From a virus (taxonomy: Duplodnaviria; Caudoviricetes), in the IMG/VR virus record IMGVR_UViG_3300010361_000007, positions 1 through 39,057 of that record: a DNA stretch of 39,057 nt; one strand, 5' to 3'. The position numbers and the translations under genes were made by a program. Shown one piece after another: positions 1 through 39,057 of this stretch. A model generated the notes under the pieces. It was not told the origin of the DNA. It saw nothing but the letters and a program-made list of their open reading frames with translations, and made no database searches. Numbering within the stretch: the stretch's first letter is position 1; the number at the start of each line of letters is the position of its first letter.

Positions 1-123
1 CATTGGACGAACCAGCGTCCGGGCTCGTGGGTGCAGGTGCGCCTTGCTCTGGCGACGGCGTCTCTGACATCGAGGGTTCTGGGAAAGTCTCAGACGCCGT
101 TACTGTACGTCAACCTGGCGTTA
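1..123. repeat. Terminal direct repeat (copy 1); circularity/assembly overlap
   Basis: 1-123 is identical to 38935-39057 and contains the 5' end of the scaffold gene. Confidence 0.95.
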
Positions 124-658: not shown

Positions 659-819
659 ACATGCAGGTTCTGTACTGGTGGATTGGCGGAATGGCCGCCA
701 TGCTGCTCGTAAATCTGCTGCTGGCCAATTTCATGGGCGCGACGATGTTCGTGCCGTTCATCGCCTTCACCGGCTTCGCCGGCCCAACGCTCAGGCGGCG
801 CCGAGCAGTGCTTGCATGA
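655..819 (+). CDS. Small two-TM membrane protein (54 aa)
   Basis: MNMQVLYWWIGGMAAMLLVNLLLA... hydrophobic with basic tail; ATGA coupling. Confidence 0.55.
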   Translation: MNMQVLYWWIGGMAAMLLVNLLLANFMGATMFVPFIAFTGFAGPTLRRRRAVLA

Positions 820-3800
820 GCGCGCGGTGCTGGGCGGTGCGCAGCATCTGCTGCTCGAGCATGATCTGGTTGCTCGTCACATCCGGGCTATAGCTGACCA
901 CCGGCGCGAGCGCGCCCGTCGGCGTCGCGCGCGCCATGCCAGTGCCGGACTGTGCGACATCACGCAGCACCATCTGGCCCGCGGCCGTTGAGGCGACCTG
1001 GCCGATGTTCTGGAGCGCCGCGCGCTGCGCCAGGGGCGTCATCTGCTGCCACCGATCGGAGTTGACTAACGCGTCGGCCGCACGCTGAATCACCTGGCCG
1101 CGGTACTGCTCGTACGCGAGGCGTTCCTCGGGCCGCAGCCGGATCTCGTTCATCGGCCCATAGGGGATGGTGTCCGGCGTCGCCGAGGGCGCCACGCCGG
1201 CGGATTGCATGGCCGCCAGGATCGGGCTCGGCGTACCGGGGGCGGTCCGCACCGGCAGCATCTCGCCCAGGCCCAGCTGCGGATTGGCCAACGCGCGACC
1301 GAGCACGTCCTGTCTGGCCGGCAGATTCTCGCGCAGGCGGGGGATGTTCTGCATCAGGTTCTCGGCGATGCTCTGCGGCACTTGCCCCGTGGTCTGCGCG
1401 GTGAGAGCCTGCCGCTGGGTCGGGTCGGTCATCTGCGCGATCGAGCGGACAAGACCTGACTCGGGCACCAGGCCGCCGAGCATGCTCGATGCGACGTCCG
1501 TGACACCTCGCAGACCCGTGGCCGCCACACCCCCGGATTGCAGCGCGTCATACAGATTGGCAAAGGTGCGCATCGGCGTGGCTGAGGCAAGTTGCTCGCC
1601 CACCTCGGACACGAGCTGCGCGGCGGCCGTGACGCGCGGGTCCTCGATGCCGTACGCCTGTGGCCCGGCGGCCGCTTGCTTGGCGCGCGCCGCGTTGTAG
1701 GCCTGCACCGCGTCGGCATACGCGCCGGCCATCATCATCGGCCCGCGCAGTTGTGGTGGCAGTTTCTCCCAGCTGTGATAGGCGCCGTCGGGCCCGAGAA
1801 AACTGTTGGGCTGGTTGCCGTCGCCGACCCACACGCGTCGCTGGCCTGGGTCGCTCGGCCCGTTACCCGTGATCGCGCCACTGGTCGCCTTACTGGCCAG
1901 CCACACGCTGAGCGCGGTGCCGATCAGGTTGTTCGTCAGACGTTCGCTGAGCGGGCCGACCGCGCTGCCGGCCGGTGTCGAGCCGAGGCCGGCGGCGTAC
2001 GGACCGCGACCGGTCAGTCCTCGAGCCACGTCGAAGGCCGTACCAGCCAGACCCAGCGGCGTGTGCTCGACCAGCCGGCTCGCCAGGCTCATGCCCATGC
2101 GGTACACGGGGAACAGCGCGTCGCCGACCGGCCCGGCCTGGGTGACAAACCGCCCGAATGCGCTCGTGAGCGTGCCCAGATCGCCGCGGGCCGCGGCGCG
2201 GTCGCCCATCGCCTGGACTTCGCGACTGACCGGCTGCCCGAACTGGCGCTGGAACTCGGTGAACCAGGCGGGGCCACTGTGACCCGCCGCGGACGCGGCT
2301 TCGCCCGCCGCGGCGCCGTGCTCCATGGCCTGGACCAATTGCGACGTCGCGTTCTGAAAGGCTCCGTGCAGTGCGCCGGCACCCTCGAAGACGTTGGCGA
2401 GCACGCCCGGCAGACCACCCCCGGCGCGCGCGGACAACCCGGTTGGTCGCGCCAGGCTGTCGCTCAGACCCTGGAGGAAGTTGTCGGTCCAGTTGACGAG
2501 GCCCGACTGAGCGCCGAGCACGCGACCCTGGAGACGTCCGGGGGTGAAACTGGCGAGATCGCGCACGGCGCCGGTGACGCCGCTAAGCATGGGGGTCAGC
2601 GTGGCATTGAAGGCGACGTCGGCCATCGTATTGAGGCCACTGATGACGCCACCCTTGTACAGGCCCTCGAGCCACTGGCCCAGCGTCGGCGGCGCCAGTC
2701 CCGCGGCGGCACCGCTCGCGCGCGCGGCACCGACGGCACCCGGTACACCCATCGCGATATCGAGGCCAGGCCCGCCCGCGAGCGCGCCGCCGAGCGTGCC
2801 GGCGCCGACTTTGAGCCAACGGTTGGGGTCGTTCGGGTCGGTGGCCAGGTACGTGCCGTAGCCGCCGGCCGCGCCATCTCCGAGTAGACGTGCGTAGGCA
2901 CTGCTCGCTAGAGCTGATTGGCGACCAGCAAGCAAGTCTTTGAGGCCATTGAGTTCTCCTTGAATGTCGGCCTGGGCTTCGGCCTGGGGCCGCGCCGCGC
3001 CTCCCGTTTCGGTGACCTGTTGCGTCAGTTGACGCAGACGGTCGGTCAGATCTGCCGTGCGCTGATCGATCATGCCGCGCAGGCCGGTCAGCACATCGCC
3101 GGCTTCCTGGGGTGCTGCTGGCACAACCGGCTCGAAGGCACCGCCGACCGTGCGTATGAACTGGGTCGCTTCGGGGTTGGCCGCAGCTGCGGCGGCATAT
3201 TTGTTCAGCAGGCTCGGCAGGGGCACCTCCGAAGGCTGCATCTCCAGACCGGTGCGCGGGTCGATCTCGATGCCGCGCGGCGAAAAGCGCTGCATGGCCT
3301 GCGACTCGAGCGGCGCCATCTCCTGGCCGGTGAGTGGGTCGAGCAGCACGCCGCGCGCGGAGTACGTCGCTGGCGCGAGCTCCTGCCCTGGTCCTCGAGC
3401 CAGTAGCGCGGCCGTCTGGTCTGACCACGGGATCGCACGCAGCGGCAACTCCGCGGCCGGCCCCTGCTGCAACAGGCGCAGCGATTGCTCAGACCAGGGC
3501 ACCGCGCTTGCCGCCGGCGCCAGCACGTCGGCCACCGTCGCGGCACCGGCGCGCGTGGCACCACCAGGACCAGCCGCCGCACCGAGACCGGCGAGGCCCG
3601 TCTGCAAGGCGCCACCGAGGATGTCGCCCACGTTGCCGGTCTGGATGCCGCGCGCGATATTCGGTACGCCCTGCTCGACGATCTGCTGGTACGGGTCGAA
3701 CCCAAAATTTTGTCCAGGCCGGGACAAATCGACTGGGGCGAGTAATGGATTCTCGGGCAGCCCGTACTGGGCGTAGCCCGAGCGGGCAAGAGCGTTCTGC

Positions 3801-5773
3801 TGACCGATGAACTGGCCCACGTCGCCGAGGGCCTGCCCGGCCACGTTCGGGATGCCGCTCGCGGTGAGCGCGTTGGATTGCAGCAGATCGTTGACGGTGC
3901 GCGGCACCTGCGACACGCTCGACTGTGCCTGGGTGAGCAGGTCCTGCACACCCGTCGGCGGCTGACCGCCGACGTTGAGCACGGCGTTGGTGATGTCGTC
4001 GACCTTGCCCTTGAGCGCGCCCGTCGGACCACCGAGGATGTCGCCCACCAGTCGCTGGCCTTGCTCGAGCAGCGGCGTCGGGTTGAGCTGGATCGACCCC
4101 GGCGCGGGCGCGTAGGCACCCGGTGGCGTCAGCAACCCGCCCGGCCTGCCCGGCATCGGCTGCGGACTTTCTCCAGTCGCCGGCAGTGGAATCGACAGGG
4201 GCCCGACGTTGAGCGAGCGCGCGGTCGACGCCGCCTGCCCGTCGCCACCCAGTGGATGATCGGCAAACACCGCCGACCGCGCCGCGCCGCCCGACTGCGG
4301 CATGGCGTTGATCTGCTGGGGCGTCATCCACTCGCTACCACCTCGCAGATCGGTGCCACTCGTGCCCACGTGCAATTGGCCCGTCTGGGCGTTGTAGCCG
4401 TCGACGTAGTAGTAGTGGCCCGGCGTGTCGATGATGACCGGGTTGCCACCGCTCGCGTCGCGTCCCACCTGGGCCCAGTCGACGCCCTGCGTGGCGTGCG
4501 CGTCCACGCCCATCGCGTTGAGCAATTTCACCTCGGAGCCGACGCCCTGCATGCCCTCGTTGGGATTCCAGCCGACCTGCTGGGCGAGCTGCTTGGCCTC
4601 GGCCACCGACGGATTCCGCCCGTACGTCTGGGCGAAGGCGATCGCCGCGGTGGGTCCGCAGAACGCGTACGCGTCGCCCGAGCTCAAGCCCAGCCCGAAT
4701 TGTGAGGCGCGTTCGGCGATCTGCGACTTGGCGGCGTCGACGGCCGTGTTGACCGCGCTCAAGCCCTGCTGCGCGAGGTTCTGGACGGTGCCGAGGATGC
4801 CGCCACCGATGTCGTTGTAGGCCGTGGCGTAGTTCTGCCGCGCGGCCGACGTCGGCGTGTCGTAGCCCAGCGGCCGTTCGGCCTGACCGGCGACCCACGA
4901 GGCCTTGTCGGCGCCGGTGAGGCCCTGCGGCGCGTTGCGGTACGCCTGCGCGTACTGCGGCACGATCCTCGAGGCCTGCAACTCGGCGCCGCTCTGGCCG
5001 AGCAGTTGCTCCTCGGGGATGCCGGCCCCCATGCCGCCCATGTCGAACTGGAACAACCCGCGCGCACCCTTGCCGGACCCCATCTCGAAGCCCTGTTGCA
5101 CGCGGTTCGGGTCCCAGCCACTCTCGGCCTTCGCGCCGGCCGCCACGGTGCGAATGAAGTCGGGATCACCCGCCAGGTCCGCGGGCGCGTTCTTCTGAAT
5201 CAATCCCGTCAGCCAGTCGGGCACATTGCCCACCGATTGCGCTGAAATCGCACTAGGCGGGCCGCCAGACGGCGGCGGCGGTGGCGTGGGCTGTGGGAGT
5301 CCTGGCGGCGCAGGCACGCTCTGGAGCGCCGTGGAGGCCCCGCCGAGCAGGTTCTGCATCTGTTGGCCCACCCAGTCGGCGCCGGCGTTGGTCAAATCCG
5401 CGCTCGCGGTCGGCGGCGACGGTTGAGGCGTCGGCACCTGCGGGAGTGGCGCGGCGGGCGCCGGCGTCGGCGTCGGCGTCAAGTCCGTCGGCGTGGGTGG
5501 CGTCGGCGTGGGTGGCGGAGGCGCGATCGGCGTGGGCGGGGGTGCCGGCGTCGGCGTCGGGATCGGCTCGGGTGCGGGCGACACGGGTGGCGGCGCGGCC
5601 ACCGGTGGAGGTGGCTGAGGCACCAGGCTCTGGGCCTGGCGCATGAGCGCCGACATCTGCTGCTGGGCCCAGTCCTGGCCGGCCGAGATGCGCTGGTGCT
5701 GCTGCTGCATCCAGATCTGGCCCGCGCTCTGACGGTACTGGTCGTCATCGAGCCAGATGCCGCTGCCGGCCAT
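791..5773 (-). CDS. Large internal virion/ejection protein with lysozyme-like and peptidase C39-like domains
   Basis: 1660 aa; AESGWDP...ARGLFQF (lysozyme/SLT-type); FCGPTAA...GHYYYVDG (papain-like C39-type); Pro-rich N-terminus; last of a run of large virion genes. Confidence 0.8.
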   Translation of the reverse strand: MAGSGIWLDDDQYRQSAGQIWMQQQHQRISAGQDWAQQQMSALMRQAQSLVPQPPPPVAAPPPVSPAPEPIPTPTPAPPPTPIAPPPPTPTPPTPTDLTPTPTPAPAAPLPQVPTPQPSPPTASADLTNAGADWVGQQMQNLLGGASTALQSVPAPPGLPQPTPPPPPSGGPPSAISAQSVGNVPDWLTGLIQKNAPADLAGDPDFIRTVAAGAKAESGWDPNRVQQGFEMGSGKGARGLFQFDMGGMGAGIPEEQLLGQSGAELQASRIVPQYAQAYRNAPQGLTGADKASWVAGQAERPLGYDTPTSAARQNYATAYNDIGGGILGTVQNLAQQGLSAVNTAVDAAKSQIAERASQFGLGLSSGDAYAFCGPTAAIAFAQTYGRNPSVAEAKQLAQQVGWNPNEGMQGVGSEVKLLNAMGVDAHATQGVDWAQVGRDASGGNPVIIDTPGHYYYVDGYNAQTGQLHVGTSGTDLRGGSEWMTPQQINAMPQSGGAARSAVFADHPLGGDGQAASTARSLNVGPLSIPLPATGESPQPMPGRPGGLLTPPGAYAPAPGSIQLNPTPLLEQGQRLVGDILGGPTGALKGKVDDITNAVLNVGGQPPTGVQDLLTQAQSSVSQVPRTVNDLLQSNALTASGIPNVAGQALGDVGQFIGQQNALARSGYAQYGLPENPLLAPVDLSRPGQNFGFDPYQQIVEQGVPNIARGIQTGNVGDILGGALQTGLAGLGAAAGPGGATRAGAATVADVLAPAASAVPWSEQSLRLLQQGPAAELPLRAIPWSDQTAALLARGPGQELAPATYSARGVLLDPLTGQEMAPLESQAMQRFSPRGIEIDPRTGLEMQPSEVPLPSLLNKYAAAAAANPEATQFIRTVGGAFEPVVPAAPQEAGDVLTGLRGMIDQRTADLTDRLRQLTQQVTETGGAARPQAEAQADIQGELNGLKDLLAGRQSALASSAYARLLGDGAAGGYGTYLATDPNDPNRWLKVGAGTLGGALAGGPGLDIAMGVPGAVGAARASGAAAGLAPPTLGQWLEGLYKGGVISGLNTMADVAFNATLTPMLSGVTGAVRDLASFTPGRLQGRVLGAQSGLVNWTDNFLQGLSDSLARPTGLSARAGGGLPGVLANVFEGAGALHGAFQNATSQLVQAMEHGAAAGEAASAAGHSGPAWFTEFQRQFGQPVSREVQAMGDRAAARGDLGTLTSAFGRFVTQAGPVGDALFPVYRMGMSLASRLVEHTPLGLAGTAFDVARGLTGRGPYAAGLGSTPAGSAVGPLSERLTNNLIGTALSVWLASKATSGAITGNGPSDPGQRRVWVGDGNQPNSFLGPDGAYHSWEKLPPQLRGPMMMAGAYADAVQAYNAARAKQAAAGPQAYGIEDPRVTAAAQLVSEVGEQLASATPMRTFANLYDALQSGGVAATGLRGVTDVASSMLGGLVPESGLVRSIAQMTDPTQRQALTAQTTGQVPQSIAENLMQNIPRLRENLPARQDVLGRALANPQLGLGEMLPVRTAPGTPSPILAAMQSAGVAPSATPDTIPYGPMNEIRLRPEERLAYEQYRGQVIQRAADALVNSDRWQQMTPLAQRAALQNIGQVASTAAGQMVLRDVAQSGTGMARATPTGALAPVVSYSPDVTSNQIMLEQQMLRTAQHRALMQALLGAA

Positions 5774-5776
5774 CGA

Positions 5777-7294
5777 CTACGCCAGTGAGGTCTGGTAGGT
5801 GGGGGCTTGCTGCCCGACGCGGCTGGACTGGTACTGGCTCAAAAAACTCGGCAGCGTATAGCCCGCGGCACCGAGGCCCGAGCCGAAGGCCTGGAGCTCG
5901 TCCGGCGAGAGCCGCTCGAGTGAGCCCGGCGCGAGCGCCTGTGCGCCACGCGAGGCGATGCCACGAATGGCGTCGAGCGTGTTGGCGTAGTTCCAGCCCG
6001 AGGTCGCGCCACCCGTGCCCGCCGCGGCACCGGCGCCCTCGGCCTGACCACCGCCCATGCCGGCCGCAAGCCCGCCCATGCTCGCCGGCGTGGGCGCCTG
6101 CCCACCCGTGCCCGTGAAGGACGGCAGGCCCATGTTGTTCTGCAACGCCTGGAGATACACCGGCACGTTCGGGTTGGCCGCCGCGCCGCGCAGGTAGTTG
6201 GACTGCTGGAAGGTGTTCTGCGGACCCTGCAACTGCGCCGCCGTCGACAGGTACTGCTGGCCGAGTTGCCCCTGTTGCAGCGCGTTCTGCATGTTGAATT
6301 CGCGCGCCTGCTCGGTGGGTGCGCCTTGGAACGTGCCGGTCAGCGCGCCCTGCTGCAAGGCGTTCATCAGGTTGTACTCGCGCGCGGTCTCCGTCGGCGC
6401 GCCGTTGTACATCCCCGAGAGTTGCGCAGCCTGGTTGATGGACTGGAGCGTCTGCTGCGGCTGCGCGGCCGGGTTCTGGTAGCCGGTGGCTTGCAGCGCA
6501 CCATTGACGCCGCGCGCCCACTGCGCCGCGGCCAGCTGTGGGTTGTTCTGGTTGTATTGCAGCCAGTACTGCTGCTGGTCCTGGGGCAAGCTGTAGAACG
6601 ACGCGCCGTTCATGGCCAGACCCTGTTGCAGCATGACGTCCGGGTTCATATTCGGGTTAGTGAACGTGCCGGTGAGTTGCGCGCCCTGCAACGCCTGGTT
6701 GTAGGCCTGCTGCTGGGCTTGCTGGGTCTGCTGAATCGAGCCGGTCTGGGGTGGCCCCTGCGACAGTCGCTGCAAGGTGTCCCAGCTCACCGGCGCGGCG
6801 CTGGAGGTCATCGCCTGCGCGGTCGTGCCACGCTGTCGCGCGAGTTGGTCGAGCGCCTCGGTGGTGATCATCTGCACCGAGCCGTCCTGCTGCACGACGC
6901 CGAAAGCCGGACCCATGCCTGGCTGTTGGCTCGGGGCCGTCAAGACGGTGCCTGCCGCGTACGGGTTGACGCCGGGCTGGGCGAACTGCCCGGTCGCGCC
7001 GGCGATCGCCAGGGCGTTCTGCAACTGCTGGCCGAGCAGTCCCTGCTGTGCCTGCTGCTGGGCTTGTGTGGGCGTACCGGCCGGTGGTTGCGTCGGGCCG
7101 CCCGCGCCCCAGGTCATCCAGTTACCACTCGGCGCGAACCCGAACTGCGTCCCGTACGCCTGGGCCTGGGCGAGGGCGGCCTGCTGCTGCTGGAATTGCA
7201 GCGCTTGCAGGAACATCTGCATCTGCTGGTTGAGCCCAGCCGTGTAGCCGCCGGAGGTCTGGCCAAAGAACGTGCCGAGCGGGTCTGTCAGCAA
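5777..7294 (-). CDS. Gln/Ala/Gly-rich internal virion (ejection) protein; start codon non-canonical or uncertain
   Basis: 505-aa ORF with internal repeats (GAPTETAREYN/GAPTEQAREFN); in-frame TGA at 7303-7301 limits upstream extension; SD AAGGAGG at 7301-7295. Confidence 0.8.
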   Translation of the reverse strand: MLTDPLGTFFGQTSGGYTAGLNQQMQMFLQALQFQQQQAALAQAQAYGTQFGFAPSGNWMTWGAGGPTQPPAGTPTQAQQQAQQGLLGQQLQNALAIAGATGQFAQPGVNPYAAGTVLTAPSQQPGMGPAFGVVQQDGSVQMITTEALDQLARQRGTTAQAMTSSAAPVSWDTLQRLSQGPPQTGSIQQTQQAQQQAYNQALQGAQLTGTFTNPNMNPDVMLQQGLAMNGASFYSLPQDQQQYWLQYNQNNPQLAAAQWARGVNGALQATGYQNPAAQPQQTLQSINQAAQLSGMYNGAPTETAREYNLMNALQQGALTGTFQGAPTEQAREFNMQNALQQGQLGQQYLSTAAQLQGPQNTFQQSNYLRGAAANPNVPVYLQALQNNMGLPSFTGTGGQAPTPASMGGLAAGMGGGQAEGAGAAAGTGGATSGWNYANTLDAIRGIASRGAQALAPGSLERLSPDELQAFGSGLGAAGYTLPSFLSQYQSSRVGQQAPTYQTSLA

Positions 7295-7304
7295 CCTCCT
7301 TCAC

Positions 7305-7379
7305 TGGTTGCGGGGCCAGGACTCGAACCCGGCTCTGCACCTGACAGAGGTGCCATGCTACCCACTACACCACCCCGCG
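7305..7379 (-). tRNA. Atypical tRNA: initiator-like acceptor stem (C1:A72), anticodon UGU (Thr-type), encoded CCA
   Basis: Folds as CGCGGGG TG GTGT AGTGGGTA GCAT G GCACC TCTGTCA GGTGC AGAG CCGGG TTCGAGT CCTGG CCCCGCA A CCA; C33 and C37 are non-canonical. Confidence 0.85.
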
Positions 7380-7390
7380 CCATCATCGCG

Positions 7391-9448
7391 TCATCGCATG
7401 CCGATCATGTTCATGGGGTTGGCGAAGCCCATGTAGTTCTGCATCAGGTTGGGGATGGTCGGCACCGGCGCGGGCACGTACGCCGGCGCGGGCTGCGCCG
7501 GTCCGGCGGTGGCCGGCGTGGCGCTGATCGACGGCGGGTTGAAGTAGCCACCTAGCATGGCGGGCATCGGTATCGATCCGCCGGGTCCGGTGCCAATCGG
7601 CCCGCCGGTGTAGGCGCTCGAGGCCGTGGCCGGCATTGGCGTCGGTGGCCCAACACCGGCACCGGTGTACGGCATCGGTGTCAATGATGCACCAGTGCCG
7701 CCCATCGCGGAGGCCATCGCCGCGCGGCCAGCGGGGTTGTCCATGAACCCGGCCGCGTTCATCGCCGCGGTCGACGCCTGCGGGTTGAACGTCGGACCCG
7801 AGTTGGCGCCACCCGCGGGCTGGCCGTTGACGTTGACGTTGATCGTCGGCGACTGACCACCAGCCGGACCCTGCGCATTGGCTTGCTGGGTGCCCGCGGC
7901 GTGGCCCGCGGCGAACGATTGCAGCAACGCCGGCATAGGCGGACCCTGGGGCAGTTGCACGGGCGCGAACTGTGGGCCGGCCAGACGTTGCGCCATCTCA
8001 TCCATCACTTCGCGGAACGCCGCCGCGCCGGCCGTGCTCCCGCGTGGCGCGTACTGGTTCATGGAGGCCATCTGGCCGAGCGCCGCGCTGCCGAGCTGCG
8101 CGTACTGGTTGGCGCGCTGGGCCATGGCCCCTTGCAACGCGTTGACGCCGGACATCTGCTGGCCGTACTGGTTCTGCTGGTAGTTGGCCGCGGCCACGCT
8201 CGCGGCGTACGGCGTGGTGCCGGCCGTCGCGGCGCGGAAGTAGTCCGACATCGCGTCGTTGGCTTGCTTGGTCGCCTCGTCAGGACTCAGACCCGAGCCA
8301 GGCCCGAAGAACTGGTTGTGGATGTCCTTGATGGCCTGCAACTGCTGCTGCAAGCCGTACATCGGCCCGAGCGCTTTTTCCTGGATGCCCGCCAATGCGG
8401 CCGCAGCACTCGCCTGCGAGGCGGCGCCGGCACCGTACGCCTGCGCCGTCTGGCCGGCTTGCAGACCGGGCGCGCCGGGGATCAGCGAGCGCTGGTAGTC
8501 GGCCTGCGCGTCGGTGTAGCGCGTCTCCGCCGCCGCCTTGCCACTCTGCGCCTTGTAGTAGTCCGACTGCGAGTCGGTCAGTCCGACCTGGGACTGGGTG
8601 AGGCTCGTATCGGCGGCCTGCTTCTGGACGAGGCCCGGCAGCAGCGTGTCGATCTGCTTGGCCTGCGTCGCGAGCAGGTTGCTCTGGGCCTGGAGTTGCT
8701 GGACTTCGGCGGGCGTCTTGGCCTTGGTCGCGTCGGCCGCGGCTTGCAACGAGGCGGCACTGGCGCTCGCCTGCGTCGCCTCGGCGGCGGTCTTCTGCTT
8801 CTGGGTGTCGGCGCCGTCGACCAGCACCTTGGCCTGCGCGCCGGCGAGCGCGCCGTCGGCCTTGGCCTTGTCGATCTGTGATTGCGCGAGGCCGACCTGG
8901 TTGGGGTCGACCAGTTTCATGGCGTTGCCGAGCGCCGTGGAGTACGCCGCGTTGGCCGTCTCGACGCGTTGCGAGGCCTGCGACAGCGAGGTGTAGACCG
9001 CGTTCAGTTGCGTCGTGGCCGCGGTGAGCGCGGTCTGCTGCGTGACGTCGCCGGCGCTGACGCGCTGCTGCGCATCGTCGTAGGCCTTCTGCGCGGTGGT
9101 CAGCTTGTCCCAGAGTTGGGCGCGTTCGACGTTGGCGCCCTGGACCTCCCTGGCTGCGGTTTCGGTGGCCTGATCGACGGTGAACATGCCCTGCGGGCCC
9201 TGCGGCGCGCCGATGGTGGGCGCGACGGGCGGCGTGGTGCCCGTGCCAGGACTCGCCGGGCCTTGCGTCGGCCCACCGACGTCGGGTGCGCGCGAGGCGT
9301 TGGGGTCGATGTTCGCCGCCGCCGGCACCTGGTCGCTGGGTGCGACGTACGGCGTGCCCTGACCGCCCGGTTGCTGTGCCGGTTGGCCGGTGGCCGAGTC
9401 GACCCAGACCCACGACCCGTCAGGTTGCTGGCGCGGCGTGATCGGCAT
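7391..9448 (-). CDS. Internal virion/ejection protein (coiled-coil, Gln/Ala-rich)
   Basis: 685 aa, long helical Q/A-rich stretches; position among large virion genes. Confidence 0.75.
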   Translation of the reverse strand: MPITPRQQPDGSWVWVDSATGQPAQQPGGQGTPYVAPSDQVPAAANIDPNASRAPDVGGPTQGPASPGTGTTPPVAPTIGAPQGPQGMFTVDQATETAAREVQGANVERAQLWDKLTTAQKAYDDAQQRVSAGDVTQQTALTAATTQLNAVYTSLSQASQRVETANAAYSTALGNAMKLVDPNQVGLAQSQIDKAKADGALAGAQAKVLVDGADTQKQKTAAEATQASASAASLQAAADATKAKTPAEVQQLQAQSNLLATQAKQIDTLLPGLVQKQAADTSLTQSQVGLTDSQSDYYKAQSGKAAAETRYTDAQADYQRSLIPGAPGLQAGQTAQAYGAGAASQASAAAALAGIQEKALGPMYGLQQQLQAIKDIHNQFFGPGSGLSPDEATKQANDAMSDYFRAATAGTTPYAASVAAANYQQNQYGQQMSGVNALQGAMAQRANQYAQLGSAALGQMASMNQYAPRGSTAGAAAFREVMDEMAQRLAGPQFAPVQLPQGPPMPALLQSFAAGHAAGTQQANAQGPAGGQSPTINVNVNGQPAGGANSGPTFNPQASTAAMNAAGFMDNPAGRAAMASAMGGTGASLTPMPYTGAGVGPPTPMPATASSAYTGGPIGTGPGGSIPMPAMLGGYFNPPSISATPATAGPAQPAPAYVPAPVPTIPNLMQNYMGFANPMNMIGMR

Positions 9449-10009
9449 CTACATCGGTCCCGGTGGTAGCACGGGCGGTGCACCTGGCATCGGACCTGGC
9501 ATCGGAGGTGCGCCCGGTGGCGGTCCTTGCGGCAGCGGTGGCAGCGCCGGGCCCACGACCGGAGGTGGCCCCGGCGGGGGTGAGCCCGGCGCATTCATCT
9601 GCGCGAGGTGTTGCTGGGCCAGCGTGAGCGGCAGCGTCGAGCCCTCGAACGGCGGCGGCGGCTCGGTACCGGCGGCGGCGTGCGACCAGCCCTGGATCTT
9701 CTGGGCGTTGGCGATCGCCTCTTTCAGGTCGGCACCCTGATACAGCATCGCGCGCATCGGGTACACCTGCCCGAGCGCCTGACCCGGCGACATGCCCTGC
9801 GCGATCAGTTGGTGGTACTGCGCGTCGGCCGCTTGTGTGGACCCCAGTGGAGAAAAGTTCCAGCGCTGGACGACCTCGTCCTGGCTGAGCTGCTGGCCGC
9901 TCAGTGGCGAGCCGAGCCGATTGGCGATGCCCTGCGAATACTCCTGGACACGCGACGCAAAGCTGTTCACGGTCTGGCTGAGCAGGTCCTGCGAGTTCTG
10001 CCCGGCCAC
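9449..10009 (-). CDS. Hypothetical virion-associated protein, Pro-rich C-terminus
   Basis: 186 aa, GTG start, abuts the next gene (TAG ATG). Confidence 0.7.
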   Translation of the reverse strand: MAGQNSQDLLSQTVNSFASRVQEYSQGIANRLGSPLSGQQLSQDEVVQRWNFSPLGSTQAADAQYHQLIAQGMSPGQALGQVYPMRAMLYQGADLKEAIANAQKIQGWSHAAAGTEPPPPFEGSTLPLTLAQQHLAQMNAPGSPPPGPPPVVGPALPPLPQGPPPGAPPMPGPMPGAPPVLPPGPM

Positions 10010-10013
10010 GCCG

Positions 10014-10148
10014 CTACTTGCGTTTCTTGGCCTGGCGCTGGGTGTTCAGCGCAATCGCAATAGCTTGCCGCCTTGGGCGACCGGCGGCCATCTCGGTCTT
10101 GATGTTCTTGCCGACGTCGGCCTTTTTGGAACTCTTGATCAACGGCAT
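10014..10148 (-). CDS. Small basic phage protein (44 aa)
   Basis: MPLIKSSKKADVGKNIKTEMAAGRPRRQAIAIALNTQRQAKKRK; resembles the recurrent phage MPLKKG...QAVAIAL family; translated by hand, not in the ORF track. Confidence 0.8.
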   Translation of the reverse strand: MPLIKSSKKADVGKNIKTEMAAGRPRRQAIAIALNTQRQAKKRK

Positions 10149-10165
10149 GATCACTAATACCGCCA

Positions 10166-10420
10166 TCAGTATCCGTTGCCGTTCTTGGTGGGCAAGCGCT
10201 CGTGGAGAAAACCGCCGCCCCGGCCACCCGTCGGCGTCATCCCGCTATGGACGCGGCAGGGTGGGCACGGGTAGCTGTGGCGGTCGGCCTCGAGCACGCC
10301 CGGCTGGGGAGGGAGCAGCTGAGCGTTCAGTCGCGCCAGACGATCGAGCTCGGGGTAACTGTTGGGACCCGCGGGCGAGCCGGCGTTGCTGGGCCCGGAC
10401 TCGGCCTTGTTGCGCGTCAT
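10166..10420 (-). CDS. Hypothetical protein (84 aa, CxxC-H motif)
   Basis: ATGA overlap with the upstream gene; CPPCRVH. Confidence 0.55.
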   Translation of the reverse strand: MTRNKAESGPSNAGSPAGPNSYPELDRLARLNAQLLPPQPGVLEADRHSYPCPPCRVHSGMTPTGGRGGGFLHERLPTKNGNGY

Positions 10421-10587
10421 GGCTTGGGCATCCCTGGCGCTCGCGGCACGCGCGCCGCGCGTCCGACGCGTGCAGTCGTCGGCACGCCGGGTACGCCGCG
10501 ACCTGGAGCCACCGGCGCTTTGGGCATTTTCGGCAGCGCAGCGCGCGGGCTGGTCGGTTTGGGCAGTTTTGATCCACCGTTGGCCAT
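10417..10587 (-). CDS. Small Pro/Arg/Lys-rich basic protein (56 aa)
   Basis: MANGGSKLPKPTSPRAALPKMPK...; TAATG and ATGA coupling on both sides; translated by hand. Confidence 0.65.
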   Translation of the reverse strand: MANGGSKLPKPTSPRAALPKMPKAPVAPGRGVPGVPTTARVGRAARVPRAPGMPKP

Positions 10588-10829
10588 TACTTGCCTTTCT
10601 TGCCGCTCACGGCGATGCCGGGAAACTTGGCGGCCACCTTGGCGCGCACCGTCGCTTTCTCGGCACTCGAGCCGTGCTGCGATACACGCGCCAACGCGTT
10701 CCTGGCGTGCGATTCGTCTGGGATCGGGTACGACCCGGCGCCCTTGCCCTTGTGCCCCTCGCCCTTGCCGGGCAACGCGAACGACTTCGAGGGCAACGCC
10801 TGGCGTTTCTTGCTCGACAGTACAGCCAT
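10587..10829 (-). CDS. Small basic protein, DUF6582-like
   Basis: LSSKKRQALPSKSFALP...YPIPDESHARNALAR motif. Confidence 0.8.
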   Translation of the reverse strand: MAVLSSKKRQALPSKSFALPGKGEGHKGKGAGSYPIPDESHARNALARVSQHGSSAEKATVRAKVAAKFPGIAVSGKKGK

Positions 10830-10833
10830 AAAC

Positions 10834-10980
10834 CTACTTGCCCTTCTTCACGGGCACGCCCCGCTTTTTATCCAGCGCGTTGTCGCGTGTGCTGCCCTCT
10901 TTGACGCCGTGCGCCTTGTCCCAGGCCTCGTCCTTGGCCGGCGTCCACTTTGATCCCTTGCCGGGTGGCTTAGGTGGCAT
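10834..10980 (-). CDS. Small Lys-rich protein (48 aa)
   Basis: MPPKPPGKGSKWTPAKDEAWDKAHGVKEGSTRDNALDKKRGVPVKKGK; translated by hand; fills the gap exactly. Confidence 0.7.
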   Translation of the reverse strand: MPPKPPGKGSKWTPAKDEAWDKAHGVKEGSTRDNALDKKRGVPVKKGK

Positions 10981-11182
10981 TCCCCGTGTCTCCACGGTTC
11001 CAGCTATACGACTTCTTGGTCGCGGGCGAGGCGTTCAGGACCTCGGGGTCCTCGACAAAATTGTTGACGTTGCCGTTGGAGCTCACGGCTAGGCTCGAGT
11101 CGGCCGAGGCCGTGCCGCCGTTGTTGGGCTGCGGGTAGCTGGTGCCTGCGCCATTGCCAATGCTCGGCATTCTCTTGGCCAT
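10970..11182 (-). CDS. Hypothetical protein (70 aa)
   Basis: GGAGG SD upstream of ATG; immediately follows the portal. Confidence 0.65.
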   Translation of the reverse strand: MAKRMPSIGNGAGTSYPQPNNGGTASADSSLAVSSNGNVNNFVEDPEVLNASPATKKSYSWNRGDTGNAT

Positions 11183-37189: not shown

Positions 37190-38071
37190 TCACTTCACAC
37201 AGAGCGTTTTGACACTCCAGTTGCTCGAGTTCGTCGTCGCCGCCGCGGCCTCGTCGGCTTCGAGGCGCTCGAACATACCATAAATAGTATCCATCGAGAC
37301 TACCCAGCTGAGGTCTAATGGGCTGTACCAAGTATGGGTAGTTGGTTGTCTTTGAATTGCCTTGAAATAGTGCGTCTTTGACCAGAACGCGCCCGTGGCG
37401 TTGGGAGCCGTGCCCGACAACAACTGCGACTCGTAGACGTCGGCGCCGTAGATCTTGCCCACGCGCGCCTCTTCCACCGCGGTGCCGCCCTCGTCCTGGC
37501 CGACGTACAGCATGTTGGTGAATTTCTCCAACTTGAGAAAGCCCGAGTAGGTGGCGGGCGGGACGACGATGTACCACGGCCGTGGCGCGGCGTTGTTGCG
37601 GAGCAAGGTGCGCGCCTGGATCAGGTTGTCGTCGGTCAGCTCGGCGCCGTTGGTGCCCACCGAGTTGGTCGCGGCTGAGAACAGACCCGCGGCGTCGACG
37701 TCCATCTGGCGCGCAAGCGCGTAGGCGCCGGCGATCGTCGTCTCCGAACGGATGTCGTATCGGCTCTGGATCTCAGCGATGTCCTCAATCATCTGCGCGA
37801 TGGCGCGGTGACCGTTGGTCATCGGCAACACGAACTGCTGCTGCGTCTCGGTGATGGCCTGCGGCGTGAGCGCGGCACCCGCGGCCTTGGCGGACGCGGT
37901 CAGGTTGTGTCGGCTCGGCAGGTTGATCGTGTTGGCGTGCTGGTCGACGAGCGCGGACTTATCGTCGAAGAGCGCGGCGACGACGACGTCGTACTGAATC
38001 GCACGGTTGAGCTCTGGCGACCACACCTGATCGATAAATACGGCACTTGTGCTGATCGTGACGTTGGCCAA
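37190..38071 (-). CDS. Major capsid protein (HK97 fold, P22/T7-like)
   Basis: FIDQVWS, TINLP, AYALARQMD, VGKIYGADVYES, DTIYG motifs; TTG start. Confidence 0.9.
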   Translation of the reverse strand: MANVTISTSAVFIDQVWSPELNRAIQYDVVVAALFDDKSALVDQHANTINLPSRHNLTASAKAAGAALTPQAITETQQQFVLPMTNGHRAIAQMIEDIAEIQSRYDIRSETTIAGAYALARQMDVDAAGLFSAATNSVGTNGAELTDDNLIQARTLLRNNAAPRPWYIVVPPATYSGFLKLEKFTNMLYVGQDEGGTAVEEARVGKIYGADVYESQLLSGTAPNATGAFWSKTHYFKAIQRQPTTHTWYSPLDLSWVVSMDTIYGMFERLEADEAAAATTNSSNWSVKTLCVK

Positions 38072-38116: not shown

Positions 38117-39004
38117 CTAGCCCTGGTTGCGGCCATTCGCGGCATCGGACGCCATCTGGGCTGTCAACGCGTCGATCACGGCGCTCGGCAGTTTGGCGGC
38201 GTCCTTGGGCGACATGGCCAGATATTCCTCAAGTCCAATGGTGCCTGAGAGATTGGGCGCGCCGGCGCCGTTGGTGCGCTCGGGTGTCGCACGCGAGCCG
38301 ACCAGACGGCCTCGCAGACCGGTGAGCTCGGCTTCGAGTTTGGCGACCTGATCGTCCCGGCTCTTCTTGCCCAGGTCGAACGCGCGTTTGGCGAGCTCGG
38401 CCGCGGAGGGTGCCGTGTGCAGGCTCTGGTACCCGTCCTGATCAATGCCGTCCATGTGGCCGATCGTGAGAAAATCGGCGGCCATCTCCTGCAAGATCTG
38501 CTGACGGGTGCTCTGCATCAGCGCGGCGGCCTGGCGATTGCCCGAATACAGTTGCAGGATGCCCTGACGGGCACGATCCTGGGTGGCGTAGTCCGGCGAG
38601 GCCAGGTCGTTGAACAAGGACTCGATCCGCGTGTTGGCCTCGCGCTGAGTTTGCAGGAACGTGTCCCGCTGTTGTCGTTCGGCCTGCTCGCGCTCAAGCG
38701 CGGCGCGCCCTTCGGCCAGACCCCGCTGGTACGCATCGTCGCCGCGCTGGCGTCGGGAGCTCTGAGGTTCACCTTCTTTTCCGAGGGGTGATGACTCAGA
38801 TCCAGCAACGTCGGGTGCGGGAGGCGATACGGTCGCTTCGGCAGGTTCCGGTGCAGGCGCGGGCGGTGCGGCTGGTTCGGCGGGTCTCAGTGACTCTGGG
38901 TACAGATTGAGGTCTGGACCGAGTTGCACATCGACATTGGACGAACCAGCGTCCGGGCTCGTGGGTGCAGGTGCGCCTTGCTCTGGCGACGGCGTCTCTG
39001 ACAT
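38117..39004 (-). CDS. Capsid scaffolding protein
   Basis: Pro/acidic N-terminus, coiled coil, LAMSPKD C-terminal helix; directly upstream of the capsid gene. Confidence 0.75.
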   Translation of the reverse strand: MSETPSPEQGAPAPTSPDAGSSNVDVQLGPDLNLYPESLRPAEPAAPPAPAPEPAEATVSPPAPDVAGSESSPLGKEGEPQSSRRQRGDDAYQRGLAEGRAALEREQAERQQRDTFLQTQREANTRIESLFNDLASPDYATQDRARQGILQLYSGNRQAAALMQSTRQQILQEMAADFLTIGHMDGIDQDGYQSLHTAPSAAELAKRAFDLGKKSRDDQVAKLEAELTGLRGRLVGSRATPERTNGAGAPNLSGTIGLEEYLAMSPKDAAKLPSAVIDALTAQMASDAANGRNQG

Positions 39005-39057
39005 CGAGGGTTCTGGGAAAGTCTCAGACGCCGTTACTGTACGTCAACCTGGCGTTA
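38935..39057. repeat. Terminal direct repeat (copy 2)
   Basis: Identical to 1-123. Confidence 0.95.

Follow-up and report, generated by a model that had tools for sequence, protein, structure and literature searches.

Bacterial proteins are taken to begin with formyl-methionine, delivered by one initiator tRNA. How is translation begun on a phage gene that lies behind a strong Shine-Dalgarno (SD) sequence, has no usable AUG and follows directly on a tRNA gene? This question is raised by the tailed-phage contig IMGVR_UViG_3300010361_000007 (the window; the whole 39,057-nucleotide (nt) stretch analysed here), where a tRNA with anticodon UGU (7305..7379, minus strand) stands immediately ahead of a 503-codon gene (5777..7288, minus strand). 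From sequence comparisons, we consider it highly likely that this tRNA, which carries an initiator-type acceptor stem, is a dedicated start tRNA that begins the adjacent gene at an ACA codon.

The tRNA(UGU) and the start region

ARAGORN identified a tRNA-Thr(UGU) at 7379-7305, and a local scan with the Rfam tRNA model gave 43.4 bits (E 3e-8); none was listed in the whole-window scan at the gathering threshold. The acceptor stem, CGCGGGG/CCCCGCA, contains a C1:A72 mismatch, G2-C71 and C3-G70, and is followed by A73 and an encoded CCA. The anticodon (7346-7344) lies in the loop UCUGUCA, which places C at position 33 and at position 37 (7343). Bacterial tRNA-fMet of the E. coli metZWV/metY type and its phage copies have the same acceptor stem, with the 1:72 mismatch, G2-C71, C3-G70 and A73, and the same pairing of base 37 with mRNA base -1. 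Unlike tRNA-fMet, the window tRNA has UGU instead of CAU, C33 and C37, and serves one gene of the genome and not all. It also lacks the three G-C pairs of the anticodon stem (3GC) and A11-U24, as had been stated originally; A-U, C-G and C-G are present at 29-31, and U11-A24 in the D stem. The acceptor of E. coli tRNA-Thr has C2-G71, and an elongator tRNA-Thr has paired G1-C72, C2-G71, U33 and a purine at 37. The window tRNA is therefore neither a tRNA-fMet (by its anticodon, 3GC and 11:24) nor an ordinary elongator tRNA-Thr (by 1:72, 33 and 37). Among viral tRNAs sharing its acceptor and D-arm pattern, 41 of 55 distinct sequences have a CAU anticodon, which makes a phage tRNA-fMet the likely parent. 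ACA accounts for 22 of the 487 threonine codons in 14 window genes, indicating that there is little elongator demand for a tRNA(UGU).

Three nucleotides past the CCA lies the SD sequence AAGGAGGT (7294..7301, minus strand). An in-frame TGA (7303-7301) is followed in the reading frame of the gene by TTG 7294, CTG 7291 and ACA 7288, and the first in-frame ATG is codon 23 (7222). In the start context CTG-ACA-GA (7284..7291, minus strand), the putative start ACA (7288-7286) is preceded by G(-1) at 7289, which pairs with C37. The whole stretch CTGACAGA (7291-7284) is the exact complement of tRNA bases 32-39, that is, of the anticodon loop plus G39 (UCUGUCAG; 7341..7348, minus strand). It is present as a single minus-strand copy in the 39 kb; the chance of such a match within 40 nt is about 4e-4, and about 0.8 copies would be expected window-wide. 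The original prediction had described the tRNA, its acceptor and loop, the SD sequence, the in-frame TGA and the TTG, CTG and ACA codons, and every base of that description checked on the minus strand.

An SD-like motif was present at only 5 of 24 other window starts checked, most genes of the phage being without one, so that the strong SD of the ACA gene stands out. No other site in the window combines an SD and ACA to open a long frame that lacks an alternative start. Two other SD and ACA combinations were seen on one related contig (L055), neither with the matching base at -1.

Two other accounts of this region were considered. The possibility, raised originally, that a sequencing error hides an ATG or GTG was not borne out and is very unlikely, since 13 other loci share the ACA without ATG, and a contig from a second study (run X3) is identical to window 7100-7320, with 0 differences. 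A shifted reading of the anticodon loop as GUC or GUU (Asp or Asn) was ruled out, as the matching GAC and AAC are out of frame.

Related loci in tailed phages and inoviruses

Protein and DNA scans for loci in which the tRNA directly precedes a homologue of the 503-codon gene covered 55 loci and yielded 11 distinct tRNA-bearing contigs, duplicate loci of one contig being dropped; a further scan added 3, giving 14 with the window's own. The encoded proteins are 28-75% identical to the window protein (blastp), and the tRNAs are 78-97% identical. At all 14 loci the frame opens at ACA, 6-9 nt behind GGAGG, while ACA makes up 23 of 578 (4%) of the other threonine codons in the same genes. In eight loci, near-cognate codons are absent from the interval that separates ACA from the in-frame stop; TTG is present in 3 loci and CTG in 6. 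Across the codons 2-22 that precede the first ATG, variation was seen at 19 of 21 third positions, compared with 6 first and 8 second positions (8 alignable loci), and this bias indicates that codons ahead of the ATG are translated. At the position of ATG 7222 itself, three loci have TGG. Relatives without the tRNA show ATG or GTG at the N-terminus in 14 of 15 cases, the remaining one being cut by the locus edge, and most of these starts come a few bases away from the stop codon of the preceding gene. On the protein tree (a quick tree, on which gains and losses are unordered), tRNA-bearing and tRNA-less loci are intermingled, with at least 5 changes.

The anticodon is UGU in 14/14 tRNAs. Position 1:72 is mismatched in 13 and U-A in one, and is never a strong pair; G2-C71 and C3-G70 are invariant. 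Pairs 29-31/39-41 are A-U, C-G and C-G throughout (with U-R at 31:39 in some), so that no locus has 3GC. U11-A24 is likewise found in all 14, and also in phage CAU tRNAs, where the search pattern required U11. G35 and U36, which weigh in tRNA-Thr identity, are present in every locus; base 73 is A in 8 and U in 6, C33 occurs in 7, and base 37 is always a pyrimidine. Compensatory changes in the anticodon and T stems support the cloverleaf.

Two further observations concern the tRNA body. Bases 28-33 of the window tRNA (CACCUC; 7352-7347) are similar to the core of the 16S rRNA anti-SD, and in the predicted precursor fold they pair with the SD; 6 of 14 loci have the identical stretch. Phage tRNA-Met(CAU) genes with U11-A24 were seen at L081/L094:2500, L118, L061, L062 and L112; several lack 3GC, that of L081 has C33, and some directly precede an SD and a gene.

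It had been proposed that complementarity between the anticodon loop and the start region be examined for covariation in homologues, and base 37 indeed follows base -1 without exception, as C:G in 6 loci and U:A in 8. None of 500 shuffles exceeded the whole-structure pairing score. When the tree was built without base -1 and with base 37 masked, the best tree required 5 changes of the 37/-1 state, or at least 3 when only well-supported branches are counted; 3/3 independent pairs agreed. Positions beyond -1 to +3 pair less regularly (38/-2 in 13, 33/+4 in 10 and 32/+5 in 11 of the 14 loci). The complementarity of the whole loop, although exact in the window, is thus not conserved: the full 8 nt pair perfectly in 5 of 14 loci, and the invariant core is -1 to +3. 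Compensatory mutants show that base 37 of the E. coli initiator pairs with mRNA base -1 (PMC10018350), and the covariation is therefore the contact expected of an initiator in the P site.

A 31-codon frame that the original prediction had overlooked runs through the entire tRNA (7288..7386, minus strand). It starts at ATG 7386 or 7383, 4 nt before the tRNA and 4-7 nt after the stop of the upstream gene, and ends on TGA 7290-7288, which shares one base with ACA. Its register is the sole one that is stop-free through the tRNA in 14/14 loci, and is never in frame with the gene; ATG or GTG stands just ahead of the tRNA in 13. The frame ends on TRACA in 12 loci, with spacers of 19, 22, 25 and 31 nt, while in L036 and L059 it is in another register and stops 5 and 11 nt after ACA, with the 37/-1 match kept. 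Judged by this pattern, the frame probably represents a preserved translational coupling that delivers ribosomes to ACA. Decoding of UGACA as a five-base codon was ruled out by L036 and L059 and by the kept 31:39 pair. At L055:1837-1851, the upstream gene runs into the tRNA: its final residues and stop codon are specified by the first 15 tRNA bases.

BLAST with the window tRNA also matched filamentous phages, which provided an independent set of genomes. We collected 21 whole inovirus records; 13 were picked because their tRNA was similar, and 8 because a coat-like protein was. Of the 21, 19 carry a tRNA of initiator type whose anticodon is not CAU (L263-L266 and L356-L370; for example MT135303.1, PQ006126.1, PQ006173.1, MT135287.1 and MT135298.1). 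The coat-like gene has about 60 codons, and we call it coat-like from its size and its pattern of hydrophobicity; its protein gave no family match above E 0.008. It begins 6-9 nt behind an SD, and in all 18 tabulated inoviruses its first bases form the exact four-base complement of tRNA bases 34-37; the nineteenth matches too. The pairs are UGU/ACA, CGU/ACG, AGU/ACU, CUG/CAG and UUG/CAA, in nine four-base combinations. Permutation gave a mean of 2.8 matches, with 0/200,000 reaching 18, a figure that is optimistic because starts were picked by eye at the aligned N-terminus and the genomes are related, with kinship left uncorrected.

Forecasts made before inspection held in both directions. The start words C-ACA and G-ACA were predicted correctly for L356 and L357, and coat genes opening T-CAG and T-CAA led to tRNAs with CUG/A37 and UUG/A37 in L367 and L369. 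A second gene with the same start word was present in four genomes. Where the tRNA is absent, the coat-like gene starts with ATG in one inovirus and has an upstream extension in the other. Taken together, 14/14 tailed-phage loci and 19/19 tRNA-bearing inoviruses have a gene that lacks a usable AUG and in which a non-AUG codon complementary to the anticodon stands at SD spacing. The matched gene lies kilobases from the tRNA in most inoviruses, and the tRNA must therefore act in trans. The coat-like gene is unannotated in 21 of 32 matched records, many of those being sparsely annotated.

Several inovirus tRNAs have a U.U mismatch at 31:39. A large adsorption-type gene contains the tRNA within its annotated N-terminal coding region at L356:3046-3126 and L357:2953-3027; the frame opened by an ATG passes through the tRNA, so that one stretch encodes both tRNA and protein.

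Another lead comes from gut phages of Bacteroidota type, which carry an initiator-like tRNA with AGU and G37 in which the three G-C pairs are kept (family L139, L144 and others; about 80 of 119 loci). In L373/L374 (G002) and L375/L376 (G001), the large-terminase frame opens with C-ACT two codons after a stop, where homologues have Met, and has no ATG for 17 codons (two near-identical contigs). Since fused small-plus-large terminase homologues exist, this case stays a lead. Other initiator-bodied phage tRNAs were noted at L274:800 (minus strand; 8 contigs) and L267:800 (minus strand), one with a CCU anticodon and one with an 8-base loop.

Mechanism and rival explanations

The features of the locus suggest how a dedicated start tRNA might operate. 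Host RNase P and a 3' nuclease would cut the tRNA from some of the late transcripts, with CCA added where it is unencoded. Host threonyl-tRNA synthetase would charge the tRNA through G35 and U36, and the weak 1:72 position, together with G2-C71 and C3-G70, would favour formylation and handover to IF2 rather than EF-Tu. The tRNA would then pair in the P site with ACA and base -1, the strong SD and the 37/-1 pair offsetting the missing 3GC. On uncut transcripts, ribosomes leaving the upstream gene would translate the tRNA sequence, stop at TGACA and re-initiate at the overlapping ACA. In E. coli, anticodon-mutant initiators can both start and re-start translation at UAG, and re-initiation needs the same tRNA features (PMC2268962). 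Such an arrangement would form an AND gate, in which the protein is made only once both mRNA and mature phage tRNA accumulate, and which would set timing or copy number. As output would need both RNAs, the cassette could, hypothetically, curb leaky expression and delay or limit the protein. Threonine is a likelier first residue than methionine, because the inovirus anticodons span three threonine codons and base 73 varies between A and U; since the acceptor stem is unlike that of E. coli tRNA-Thr, however, charging with threonine is only what we infer. Base 73 is reported to matter little for threonine identity, and E. coli methionyl-tRNA synthetase is able to mischarge tRNA-Thr(CGU) (PMC9976931).

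Several points weigh against initiation at ACA by this tRNA. All 14 loci are without 3GC and have C at position 30, and E. coli C30G40 and 3GC mutants are reported to initiate and re-initiate poorly (PMC2268962; for initiation also PMC5389676 and PMC6393288); G30 is described as critical, yet a tRNA with a middle C-G pair still enters the 70S ribosome (PMC5389676). A11-U24, which is replaced by U11-A24 here, assists formylation, according to a source whose list of initiator features includes G2-C71 and C3-G70 (PMC7949028). The acceptor stem is not of the E. coli tRNA-Thr type. Three independent 37/-1 pairs cannot give significance (sign test p 0.25), and the manner in which the inovirus starts were chosen, described above, also counts here. 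Leaky initiation could occur in the window at TTG and CTG, which are spaced 0 and 3 nt from the SD, and 5 of the 19 inovirus coat genes have an ATG, GTG or TTG placed 0-4 nt downstream of the SD. Finally, ViennaRNA favours a non-cloverleaf fold over the SD in the uncut precursor, which may reflect either regulation or a limit of the model.

This predicted fold bears on the second of the two alternatives offered in the original prediction, in which the unprocessed tRNA pairs in cis over the start region and processing releases translation. In a fuller form, the pairing would also cover the SD, ribosomes on the upstream frame could release it too, and the host initiator would then start at a near-cognate codon. 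Such a gate would make use of pairing that exceeds four bases, 38/-2 being paired in 13 of 14 loci and 32/+5 being U:A in 7 and G:C in 4, and of a precursor fold that, in the window, is predicted to hide the SD (unpaired probability 0.01) through tRNA bases 29-33. That fold is no better than those of shuffled sequences (z -1.33), however, and differs among loci, and positions 32/+5 and 33/+4 are unpaired in 3 and 4 of the 14. Of the 14 loci, 8 have no near-cognate start to release, and the matched inovirus gene is usually kilobases away, with only -1 to +3 matching consistently. We regard the gate as improbable; it is unneeded and cannot account for the inovirus cases in trans, although it may contribute in the window, where cis pairing may be an addition that keeps the tRNA on its own mRNA. 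The other alternative, initiation of the gene at ACA by the tRNA, is supported by the 37/-1 match in 14/14 loci and by the inovirus start words.

The overlap of stop and ACA in 12 of 14 loci could also point to recoding, with tRNA bases 36-38 (UCA or UUA), which complement the stop codon, reading TGA or TAA, and a +2 shift joining the peptide encoded by the tRNA to the protein; two inoviruses do have a frame that crosses the tRNA and continues into the next gene as a fusion. We give this very little credence. The upstream frames of L036 and L059, in their other register and with stops 5 and 11 nt past ACA, keep the 37/-1 match, the inovirus coat genes have no overlapping stop, and no slippery site is present, the stop being preceded by different codons (TGC, GGC, GAC, AGC). 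A mismatched 1:72 is, moreover, a trait of initiators and not of elongators, and the SD spacing fits initiation. Equally improbable is an ordinary start at TTG 7294, CTG 7291 or ATG 7222, with the tRNA being a decayed initiator, an elongator tRNA-Thr or a mark for RNA processing. In the window both TTG and CTG share the frame of the gene, TTG is the start that gene callers pick, and phage initiator-like tRNAs often stand just ahead of ATG genes. Across the loci, however, TTG is found in 3 and CTG in 6 of 14, and CTG occurs at just those loci in which C37 demands G(-1); coding selection acts on the codons that precede ATG 7222, and that ATG is TGG in three loci. Ordinary initiation would also leave the covariation unexplained, and the demand for an elongator reading ACA is small.

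Known systems and genomic setting

A dedicated start tRNA at ACA has its closest counterparts in engineered anticodon-mutant initiators (CUA/UAG, GAC/GUC), which likewise combine an initiator body with a changed anticodon and a matching non-AUG start (PMC2268962); biocontainment of phages with an amber initiator is one engineered use (PMC11744186). By analogy, the phage tRNA likely works as they do. They are laboratory constructs, however, whereas the pair described here is natural, is encoded beside its target and is tuned at position 37, and five different anticodons recur in unrelated phages. The overlap of a stop with the next start by one base behind an SD, seen at 12 of 14 loci, resembles TGATG-type coupling, such as re-initiation between genes V and VII of M13; here, the start would be at ACA, and it is the tRNA gene itself that forms the upstream frame, so that one DNA stretch gives either a tRNA or a translated leader. 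Phage alternative codes with suppressor tRNAs (code 15) likewise employ a phage tRNA and a rule unused by the host, but there a stop is reassigned in elongation across many genes, whereas here the start signal of single genes would be reassigned. The literature searched contained engineered dedicated initiator and non-AUG pairs but no natural one; subscription journals were mostly uncovered, and a prior description is possible.

The pair is real, and is probably a natural orthogonal start-codon system. We think it likely that at least three unrelated phage groups (soil tailed phages, gut inoviruses and possibly Bacteroidota tailed phages) repeatedly made a private threonine or glutamine start tRNA, which recognises a four-base word (-1 to +3) at the start of selected virion or packaging genes and gives the phage a switch for their translation, with the tRNA gene doubling as a translated leader in the window lineage. 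If true, this would give some phage tRNAs a concrete, gene-specific function, a long-open question, and would account for truncated or missing phage gene annotations. The sequence rule, by which the anticodon and base 37 predict the start word, can be used to locate such genes, and the pairs would be naturally evolved orthogonal parts that are testable in laboratory strains.

The contig that carries the window tRNA has a GC content of 66%, and a serine integrase, a terminase and a major head gene were identified on it. Near its ends (window 1-90 and about 38940-39027) the contig has a direct terminal repeat, some 87 bases long, that fits a complete, circularly assembled genome. The best DNA matches came from soil metagenomes; no RNA data set was listed as containing the sequence, a result that is uninformative about expression. 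The only hint of a host comes from a capsid protein, which is 96% identical to a protein whose label assigns it to a Chloroflexota metagenome-assembled genome; the tRNA pattern and the protein family were both absent from 185,579 GTDB genomes, and the host could therefore not be linked through a prophage.

Upstream of the tRNA lies a 685-aa gene (7391..9448, minus strand), whose stop is separated by 4 nt from the ATG that opens the frame through the tRNA. Downstream of the 503-codon gene is a 1660-aa gene (791..5773, minus strand) with weak family matches, to the internal virion protein family phrog_6651 (E 1.3e-8 over 57 residues) and to the peptidase C39-like domain PF13529 (E 1.3e-5). The 503-codon product, rich in Q, G and A, had been labelled an ejection protein, and this could not be confirmed: there was no PHROG or Pfam match, ESM Atlas matches were all <0.9, the AlphaFold model had a predicted template-modelling score (pTM) of 0.29, and Foldseek found no fold match at E<=0.001. 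The weak match of the neighbouring gene, gene order and composition back the ejection-type label, and no homology to P22- or T7-like ejection proteins was found; from gene order only, the product is probably a virion protein of this type. Short open frames rich in Lys, Arg and Pro lie in series at window 9449-11182, between a 693-aa gene and the putative ejection genes. The major head gene (window 37190-38071) has a TTG start without an SD.

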